64,000 bases of DNA from Escherichia coli (GTDB lineage Bacteria > Pseudomonadota > Gammaproteobacteria > Enterobacterales > Enterobacteriaceae): the NCBI GenBank assembly GCA_902499925.1, contig GCA_902499925.1_4130.1; one strand, written 5' to 3'. Below the pieces are notes generated by a model. That model was not told the DNA's origin. It saw only the letters and a list, made by a program, of their open reading frames with translations, and did no database searches. Shown here one piece after another: positions 17,470-17,660 of the stretch (within the stretch, counting starts at the first letter, position 1; each line of letters starts with the position of its first letter). A program made the position numbers and the translations under genes.

Positions 17470-17660
17470 TGATTTAGCCGTCTATACTTCCAGACGTGTA
17501 ACCATCTAGCCGTTTAGCCGTCCAAACGTCTAGCCATCCAGCCATCCAGAAATCTAGCCGTTTAGCCGTCTAGATGGATAGCCATCTTTACTTCCAGACT
17601 TCTGGAGGGCTAGACATATCTACGTCCAAAATCCATCCAGGGTAACTACGCCCAAAATCC
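17470..17660. repeat. iteron-like direct repeat cluster
   Basis: Closely spaced copies of TAGCCGT(T/C), TAGCCATCC, CCATCCAG and CGTCCAAA(A). Confidence 0.5.

Follow-up and report, generated by a model that had tools for sequence, protein, structure and literature searches.

The stretch of DNA studied here, below called the window, is 64,000 nucleotides long and was deposited as Escherichia coli (assembly GCA_902499925.1, contig GCA_902499925.1_4130.1). The element in question is an array of short tandem repeats, whose units resemble the met box, the operator element of the host repressor MetJ. The window belongs to an Asteriusvirus jumbo coliphage: a query of 16700-18700 is 94-98% identical to the phages PBECO4, 121Q, G17, fEgEco12 and phAPEC6. 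The array lies in a stretch of 1.8 kb without open reading frames (ORFs), which has small minus-strand genes on either side and straddles one boundary of the direct terminal repeat (DTR) of the phage. Besides the array this stretch contains at least 12 copies of the palindrome CAGTACTG, promoter-like and terminator-like sites and four copies of a second repeat, ACGYCCAAAATYC. The features on which the description rests are:

16903-18683, no strand: untranslated control region of 1.8 kb, ORF-free, straddling the DTR boundary.
17476-17587, no strand: core array of 14 contiguous met-box-like units of 8 bp, each scoring at least one quarter of the consensus.
17588-17619, no strand: extension of the array in the same register, in which two qualifying boxes alternate with two sub-threshold units.
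18361-18381, no strand: physical genome end and right DTR boundary; the end comes after 18381, as judged from the G17 DTR and the start of fEgEco12.

From 17476 to 17619 the 8-bp register is free of gaps and spacers; 14 units are contiguous and 16 of the 18 positions qualify as boxes. In order, the first seven core units are AGCCGTCT, ATACTTCC, AGACGTGT, AACCATCT, AGCCGTTT, AGCCGTCC and AAACGTCT, and the last seven are AGCCATCC, AGCCATCC, AGAAATCT, AGCCGTTT, AGCCGTCT, AGATGGAT and AGCCATCT. The qualifying boxes of the extension, AGACTTCT at 17596 and AGACATAT at 17612, score 8.6 bits each. The units follow the pattern AG(A/C)C(G/A)TC(T/C), and although 11 of the 14 core units are distinct, six positions are held throughout. 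A 27-bp A/T-rich tract (17450-17475) adjoins the array.

The periodicity is strong. The autocorrelation of the bases is 0.59-0.65 at lags of 8, 16, 24, 32 and 40, compared to about 0.17 at other lags, and Tandem Repeats Finder (TRF) reports a period of 8 with 12.4 copies. In 2000 dinucleotide-preserving shuffles of 17401-17700 the longest run of qualifying boxes in one register was never above two, against 14 contiguous units in the real sequence. The repeat content is thus above the shuffled expectation, and the initial annotation, which had described clustered repeats here, is confirmed.

All strings quoted in that annotation are present where it placed them, and its quoted 81-mer begins at 17506. 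TAGCCGT(T/C) occurs five times (17475, 17507, 17515, 17555 and 17563) and nowhere else in the window, TAGCCATC is found at 17531 and 17579, CCATCCAG at 17534, 17542 and 17633, and CGTCCAAA at 17519, 17623 and 17084. The clustered, head-to-tail arrangement therefore stands, but what had been taken for several types of unit is one array in a single 8-bp register. Similarly, the copies of CG(T/C)CCAAAA at 17084 and 17299 do exist, but they are not part of the array and belong to the separate motif ACGYCCAAAATYC. This second repeat has four copies in the untranslated region (17083, 17298, 17622 and 17648) and five in the whole window, where 0.25 would be expected. In Serratia phage BF and in CBB a related sequence, GTACACCCAAAATTCAGAC, follows the array on its right side.

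To score the array we used the published MetJ half-site weight matrix and site criteria unchanged (Augustus and Spicer 2011, PMC3228920, Table 3). The met box is an 8-bp operator element with the consensus AGACGTCT (PMC3228920). The only qualifying MetJ site in the 64-kb window is 17476-17587, with 14 boxes and 102.8 bits, i.e. a mean of 7.34 bits per box. With the same scoring the metJ/metB and metF operators of E. coli K-12 have four boxes each and reach 31.2 and 24.9 bits, respectively. Box by box these operators score 4.5-10.3, which is no better than the phage boxes. Among all possible 8-mers, 0.1% score 7.3 bits or more.

The agreement extends to the individual bases. When 213 in-register boxes from 13 arrays are pooled, sub-threshold ones included, the correlation between their symmetrised base frequencies and the counts published for 832 chromosomal half-sites (PMC3228920) is r = 0.974. 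The second-choice bases agree as well: A is preferred over G at position 1, G over A or T at position 2, A over C at position 3, and C over T over A at position 4. Further, a MetJ operator is expected to have at least two adjacent boxes in one 8-bp register; this adjacency is found here, and relatives retain the register although boxes have been inserted and deleted. Of the two ideas in the initial annotation, origin iterons or a multimeric regulator-binding array, the second is the one that agrees with these data: the period, the absence of spacers and the base preferences fit a tandem operator of the ribbon-helix-helix type, for which host MetJ is the best candidate reader.

The specificity of the unit can be seen from a scan of IMG/VR. 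The degenerate pattern ARMCNTCY, repeated four times, gives 37 loci, of which 15 have at least four distinct units in a strict run. Three permuted patterns of equal degeneracy give 51, 31 and 23 loci, all of them microsatellites, and none of these 105 has four or more distinct units. Heterogeneous arrays that hold six positions are thus specific to the met-box unit, which argues for selection by a reader and not for slippage.

The position of the array relative to the genome end is known from related phages. The record of G17 contains an exact DTR of 20,668 bp, whose right boundary corresponds to 18381|18382 of the window. The fEgEco12 record starts at the complement of 18381, with the last 60 nt identical, and five more records start at the same point, as judged by their coordinates. 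For fEgEco12 a DTR of 20,993 bp follows from termini that were mapped with PhageTerm and verified by restriction digests (PMC13070987). The array is located inside this repeat of about 21 kb, 762-905 bp from the physical end. All genes in the DTR are on the minus strand and are therefore transcribed away from the end at 18381. At the end itself there is a hairpin, GGCAGACTTCCTCTGCC (18361-18377), that stops 4 nt short of the last base; it is identical in fEgEco12 and present in G17, and is a candidate part of the terminase cleavage signal.

Arrays of the same kind are found in other phages. With 17380-17700 as blastn query all Asteriusviruses matched in the homologous region, while the segment 17430-17588 alone matched very distant phages. 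Among jumbo phages these are Serratia phage BF and the Erwinia pEa_SNUABM phages (Eneladusvirus), CBB and XbC2 (Mimasvirus), Yersinia phage fHe-Yen9-04, also an Eneladusvirus with an in-register array, and GAP32. Among the T5-like Demerecviridae they are phages of Vibrio (Pontus and many others), Aeromonas (AhSzq-1 and AhSzw-1) and Providencia (PR1 and PSTCR5), and among T7-like podoviruses PGT2 and phiKT. Every match examined is an 8-bp array with the same register and unit as in the window. In the related jumbo phages, the T5-like phages and a T7-like phage the arrays are located in DTRs or close to the ends of the records. The number of boxes is 8-21 in Asteriusvirus, 15-16 in Pontus, 28 in AhSzq-1 (221 bits), 16 in AhSzw-1, 9 in PR1 (9.8 bits per box), 9 in PGT2 and 34 in an uncultured viral contig of 120 kb. 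No similar array was found in 5,426 complete E. coli genomes (E <= 0.01). Three distant phages show where the array lies:

CBB: array at 685-804 of the record; annotated terminal repeat of 22,456 bp.
PR1: array at 9620-9691; annotated repeat of 10,461 bp; the repeat end is at a distance of 770 bp, and paired DnaA boxes are at about 90 bp.
PGT2: array at 38-109; exact terminal repeat of 260 bp in a genome of 42.7 kb.

In the window phage, fEgEco12 and G17 the distance between array and boundary is about 0.8 kb. The position of the array is consistent: it is within the DTR, near one of its boundaries.

Within the genus the arrays differ in length only by whole boxes. The window and PBECO4 have 14 boxes (plus two), fEgEco12 has 15, G17 12, SHEFM2K 8 and EJP2 about 21 of 24; all changes are insertions or deletions of entire boxes, and the register is always kept. 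The idea that the array is better conserved than its flanks was rejected. Among six Asteriusviruses the identity in 50-bp windows is 83-100% across 16.9-18.4 kb, so that the whole region is conserved, and the array is its most indel-prone part. The idea of several arrays per genome, based on multiple BLAST places per record, did not hold either, as in the window and in 60 kb of G17 the matrix scan finds a single array for each copy of the repeat; the surplus places probably come from aligning the same array out of register.

Shorter sites were also seen in proviral contigs of IMG/VR. One contig (L027) has three and four met-box-like boxes at 5223-5250 and 5373-5404, including one perfect AGACGTCT, in a prophage region of the lambdoid type. 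They are intergenic, between an ORF of 139 aa and an operon of small genes and a helicase, beside CI-like and Cro-like genes. Similar four-box sites are found in three other provirus contigs (L032, L036 and L044). They may act as MetJ operators for replication genes of the phage, or be iterons. Finally, perfect 8-bp microsatellites (AGCCTTCC and GGATGGCT) occur at the extreme ends of several viral contigs (L030 and L017 among them), in one case at both ends of a single 54-kb IMG/VR contig (L015 and L034); either the assembly may have broken at the repeat, or the feature may be truly terminal.

Next, we consider which protein could read the array. MetJ homologues are confined to Enterobacterales, Pasteurellales, Vibrionales, Aeromonadales and Alteromonadales (PMC3228920). 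The cultured hosts of the array-bearing phages all fall within MetJ-bearing orders except one, the host of XbC2, and the host genus of the window phage is Escherichia, with the metJ gene present in K-12. A tblastn search with E. coli MetJ in 50,697 phage records gave no phage homologue; its three matches, two Salmonella genome contigs and one unannotated record of 1.4 kb, are all 99% identical to host MetJ.

A phage reader shared by all lineages was sought by an all-against-all blastp of the ORFs flanking the arrays in jumbo, T5-like and T7-like phages, using up to 10 kb per phage. A single family is common to these flanks, DUF7249 (phrog_871), found in the window at 15951-16190 and 13912-14181 on the minus strand and in PGT2 as gp03. 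The two copies in the window are paralogous small early DTR proteins, 83% and 63% identical to PGT2 gp03. The family has 289 records, including rV5-like, phAPEC8-like, Campylobacter and Ralstonia phages as well as Synechococcus phages (cyanophages), and it appears to be a mobile small gene. As it is widespread in phages without arrays, it was rejected as reader.

The initial annotation had also proposed a ParA/MinD-like ATPase as a binding partner. This is not supported: none of the ten ORFs tested has a ParA-family match, and no adjacent operon of ParA and a centromere-binding protein was recognised, so the idea of a centromere was dropped. The sole P-loop candidate tested (43839-44612, minus strand) has a sub-threshold match to AAA_16 (E = 5e-4) and is 26 kb away from the array. 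Given that there is no MetJ homologue in the phage records, that DUF7249 does not follow the distribution of the arrays and that no ParA was found among the tested ORFs, host MetJ is the most economical reader, and we infer that it binds.

The array is flanked by the following elements:

17431-17450, plus strand: box CGCGGTAGGGGAACTATTGG, conserved on the left flank; before it is a small hairpin, GGGG-AAACTAT-CCCC (17415-17429).
17349-17377, plus strand: predicted sigma-70-like promoter TTGACA-N17-GATAAT (11/12 in a consensus scan), pointing into the array, towards the genome end.
17989-18016, minus strand: predicted promoter with perfect sigma-70 consensus, TTGACA-N16-TATAAT (12/12), directed leftward through the array to the early genes of the DTR.
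17785-17804, no strand: hairpin CCACCAGC-TTGT-GCTGGTGG, with Chi on each strand, some 580 bp inward of the genome end.

The left-flank box is present as CGCGGAAGGGGARCTAATGG ahead of the array in Serratia phage BF, XbC2 and CBB, and the stem of the hairpin before it covaries (CTAGT/ACTAG, CTGGT/ACCAG and CTGG/CCAG). In the jumbo phages the left flank corresponding to 17410-17450 consists of this hairpin with compensatory stem changes followed by CGCGGWAGGGGARCTAWTGG, which could be a ribosome-binding site plus a mini-ORF of 3-14 codons. T5-like phages have GCGCAG(G)AGGG at the same place, which by eye bears a weak likeness to the annotated nick-1 (major nick) site of T5, CCCTGCGC (T5 9661-9668). 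A -10 element of the GATAAT type is found similarly far upstream of the array in BF and XbC2. A search of 16500-19000 against Rfam in E-value mode gave no known RNA family, the only hit being a chance match to a microRNA (E = 0.72).

The palindrome CAGTACTG adjoins the -10 element of the minus-strand promoter at 17989-18016. It has 62 copies in 64 kb (e.g. at 16839, 17149, 17238, 17310, 17703, 17826, 17852, 17995, 18035, 18402, 18423 and 18473), where 0.9 would be expected, and about 12 of them are in the 1.8-kb untranslated region. It is often located immediately 5' of TATAAT, as in CAGTACTGTATAAT, which resembles an extended -10, and it may be a phage-specific promoter or operator element.

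Chi (GCTGGTGG) is also frequent, with 12 copies in the window against 0.73 expected. Nine are on the minus strand (852, 2259, 4608, 5856, 7317, 11309, 17785, 49753 and 60783) and three on the plus strand (11372, 17797 and 24824). Seven of the minus-strand copies are within the DTR, oriented such that RecBCD can recognise them when it comes in from the far (left) end; at 17797 the plus-strand copy, which pairs with 17785 as the hairpin, faces the near end about 580 bp away. The pattern looks like protection of the DNA ends against RecBCD; in the annotation of G17 the hairpin at 17785-17804 is a terminator. That the units of the array themselves serve as a decoy for RecBCD (GCTGGATG compared to GCTGGTGG) was considered and rejected: they have two to three mismatches to Chi, the units nearest to Chi face away from the adjacent end, and true Chi sites exist elsewhere in the region.

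Outside the DTR, the dense small minus-strand ORFs at 18684-23300 have a GC skew of about +0.2 on the plus strand, i.e. their coding strand is C-rich. Minus-strand genes within the DTR have the opposite skew; the switch falls on the repeat boundary, and gene orientation does not account for it. Further to the right, at 23391-41295, there are about 13 tandem plus-strand ORFs of 360-450 aa, with RCC1-like repeats in the two that were tested, which suggests a paralogous family. In related records their counterparts are annotated as 'DNA condensation protein'.

We consider it fairly probable that host MetJ, together with S-adenosylmethionine (SAM), coats the array. By analogy with the chromosomal met operators, each box would bind one MetJ dimer with SAM as corepressor, and neighbouring dimers would cooperate. 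A repressor filament would then cover the whole 112-144 bp whenever the host has SAM, and with 14-16 dimers in place transcription would be strongly blocked from either side.

We rank three possible roles for such a filament. The preferred one is a SAM-dependent roadblock or insulator that would mark the terminal control region. It would stand between the promoter at 18016-17989 (minus strand) and the early genes of the DTR, and also across the path of the plus-strand promoter at 17349. In this it would resemble the sites for host factors that have been proposed at the injection stop of T5, or the pause of RNA polymerase in the terminal repeat of T7. The second role would be a sink for MetJ, as the replicating genomes would soon exceed the chromosomal boxes, and the third an architectural element in DNA entry or packaging. 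A role in cis is favoured because the position of the array is constant within terminal repeats that range from 260 bp to 22 kb.

Arrays in the terminal repeats of unrelated phages suggest that phages may recruit a host metabolic repressor at their DNA ends. A far-reaching version of this can be formulated, which we regard as doubtful: a MetJ filament on the terminal repeats would be a SAM-gated checkpoint in at least three unrelated lineages (Rak2-like jumbo myoviruses, T5-like siphoviruses and a T7-like podovirus). It would stall RNA polymerase or the incoming DNA at a set distance from the end, be part of the injection stop signal in the T5-like phages, mark the repeat for concatemer processing in all three, and couple entry or packaging to the metabolism of the cell.

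Several observations weigh against MetJ as the reader, or against particular roles for it. In the left half of the box C is found at position 3 in about 35% of the phage boxes, compared to 10% of the chromosomal ones, and boxes with AGAC and AGCC often alternate in the phage arrays; together these point to a further constraint or to another reader. Unlike canonical operators, the array overlaps no promoter and has no met gene nearby; of the promoter-like sites nearest to it, one (17349-17377, plus strand) is about 100 bp upstream and the other (18016-17989, minus strand) at a distance of about 370 bp. For XbC2, which is closely related to CBB, the recorded host is Xanthomonas, which belongs to an order without MetJ. 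When the fourfold ARMCNTCY pattern was searched in 185,579 species genomes, what came up among the matches listed was mostly perfect 8-bp microsatellites in unrelated taxa. Many taxa without MetJ carry such perfect microsatellites that fit the pattern, so a period of 8 bp is by itself unspecific. Relative to the nearest repeat boundary, the array of PR1 is oriented in the opposite way to those of the jumbo phages, which speaks against a single mechanism that depends on polarity. In T5 there is no run of met boxes at 9000-10700 (Repeat Region 3, the injection stop), where DnaA boxes and the DRC/DRD repeats are present; the array is therefore not universal to the T5 group. Finally, phages of the T5 type destroy the host DNA early, and for them a sink would be pointless.

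The excess of C at position 3 and the alternation of AGAC and AGCC, unexpected from MetJ alone, lead to an alternative in which a repeat-binding protein of the phage, either a ribbon-helix-helix protein of the ParG/omega type or a small terminase ring, reads the array and the likeness to the met box is incidental or convergent. Contiguous arrays of 7-8-bp repeats are generally known to be bound by ParG (TP228 parH) and omega (pSM19035), and the array is near the packaging end. We nevertheless find this unlikely: jumbo myoviruses, T5-like siphoviruses and a T7-like podovirus would all need one and the same reader, the only family shared by the flanks compared (up to 10 kb per phage), DUF7249, has the wrong distribution, and neither a phage MetJ homologue nor a ParA-family gene among the tested ORFs was found.

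It is also conceivable that the array is a cis-acting signal of the genome end, used by the phage machinery without a host factor, e.g. for a pause in ejection, recognition by the terminase or duplication of the terminal repeat. The constant place in the DTR near one boundary, in repeats of 260 bp, about 10 kb and about 21 kb, agrees with this, as does the array of PR1, which lies some 90 bp away from the paired DnaA boxes, in the counterpart of the injection-stop region of T5. Analogues would be the arrays of short repeats beside the T7 terminal repeat, or the T5 injection-stop region itself. Such a signal would give no reason why machines for packaging and ejection that are unrelated have the same 8-bp unit in common, or why this unit matches the MetJ matrix down to the second-choice bases. 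With the different orientation to the end in PR1 and the jumbo phages, and with T5 lacking an array at 9000-10700, we hold this explanation to be decidedly unlikely.

That the repeats are the iterons of a replication origin, as the initial annotation had suggested, is very improbable. They are clustered and direct, they adjoin the A/T-rich tract at 17450-17475, the cumulative GC skew of the window has its minimum at about 18-19 kb, and the prophage-like IMG/VR contig described above has three plus four similar boxes beside a helicase operon. However, the units are contiguous and 8 bp long, and not 17-22 bp in helical phase, there is no DnaA box in 16.9-18.7 kb, and no initiator gene was recognised nearby, the flanking ORFs being without a Rep-like Pfam match. 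The skew minimum coincides with the DTR boundary; it is thus confounded and cannot be read as a signal of an origin. Moreover, equivalent arrays are located inside the 260-bp terminal repeat of a T7-like phage and at the repeat end of T5-like phages, and the origins of T5-like phages map to the middle of the genome (Davison, bioRxiv 10.1101/866236).

A neutral repeat produced by slippage and without function would fit the variation of whole units among close relatives and the many perfect 8-bp microsatellites in viral and bacterial contigs, but it is hardly credible when 11 of 14 units are distinct and yet hold six positions, when one degenerate unit recurs in lineages without other DNA similarity, and when control patterns never give heterogeneous arrays.

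The array can be compared with known systems. The chromosomal met operators share with the phage array the 8-bp unit without spacer, the consensus AGACGTCT, the tolerated substitutions and the scores per box, and the hosts have MetJ. The difference is in number and place: phage arrays have 9-34 boxes, compared to four in each of the two chromosomal operators scored. In general, chromosomal met operators have 2-5 boxes. The phage array is also away from met genes, off promoters and in the terminal repeat of a lytic phage, and it is C-rich at position 3 of one half-box.

In Repeat Region 3 of T5, at the inner end of its terminal repeat, the clustered sites for a host protein are DnaA boxes, and DnaA has been proposed to act at the injection stop (Davison, bioRxiv 10.1101/866236). 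As in the window, this is a conserved untranslated region of 1.2-1.8 kb astride the DTR boundary, rich in repeats and palindromes, with clustered sites for a DNA-binding protein of the host, DnaA in T5 and putatively MetJ in the window phage. On the other hand, the region in the window is without DnaA boxes, including the paired ones in the inverted repeats IRD'/IRC', which PR1 has. It is also upstream of the repeat genes in the jumbo phage and downstream of them in T5, and a two-step transfer of DNA is not known for Asteriusvirus.

The centromeres of ribbon-helix-helix proteins (TP228 parH with ParG, and pSM19035 with omega) likewise have abutting units of 7-8 bp, each bound by one dimer, with the protein polymerising along the DNA, and MetJ has the same fold. 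They differ in that no partner ParA or centromere-binding gene was recognised near the array, and in that the unit is that of MetJ and not ACTC or WATCACW. Finally, T7 has short repeats (SRL/SRR) and a block to transcription, the pause at the concatemer junction, in or beside an exact terminal repeat, and the array of PGT2 is inside its own. The T7 pause is needed for the processing of concatemers. Here the unit is of the CCTAAAG type with irregular spacing, and the pause is intrinsic to the phage polymerase and independent of a host repressor.

Full-text searches gave no paper in which MetJ or met boxes are connected with the terminal repeats of phages, with T5-like phages or with jumbo phages, and the array was not found in the papers checked on G17, fEgEco12, CBB or the injection-stop regions of T5-like phages, PR1 included. 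By its sequence it is a predicted met-box operator of unprecedented length in a new place.

If MetJ binds, virulent phages carry very long operator arrays for a metabolic repressor of the host in their terminal repeats. By a rough estimate one phage genome would have about as many met boxes as the whole regulon of the host, and replication should therefore derepress the synthesis of methionine and SAM unless the host DNA is destroyed first. In the records with mapped termini the array is at a fixed distance from the true genome end, and it would be a ready-made putative MetJ decoy of high capacity. A metabolite-sensing protein would then join the host factors that act at phage ends, such as IHF at lambda cos and, as proposed, DnaA at the T5 stop, and the array would offer an inexpensive experimental way into the conserved untranslated regions at the termini of jumbo and T5-like phages.

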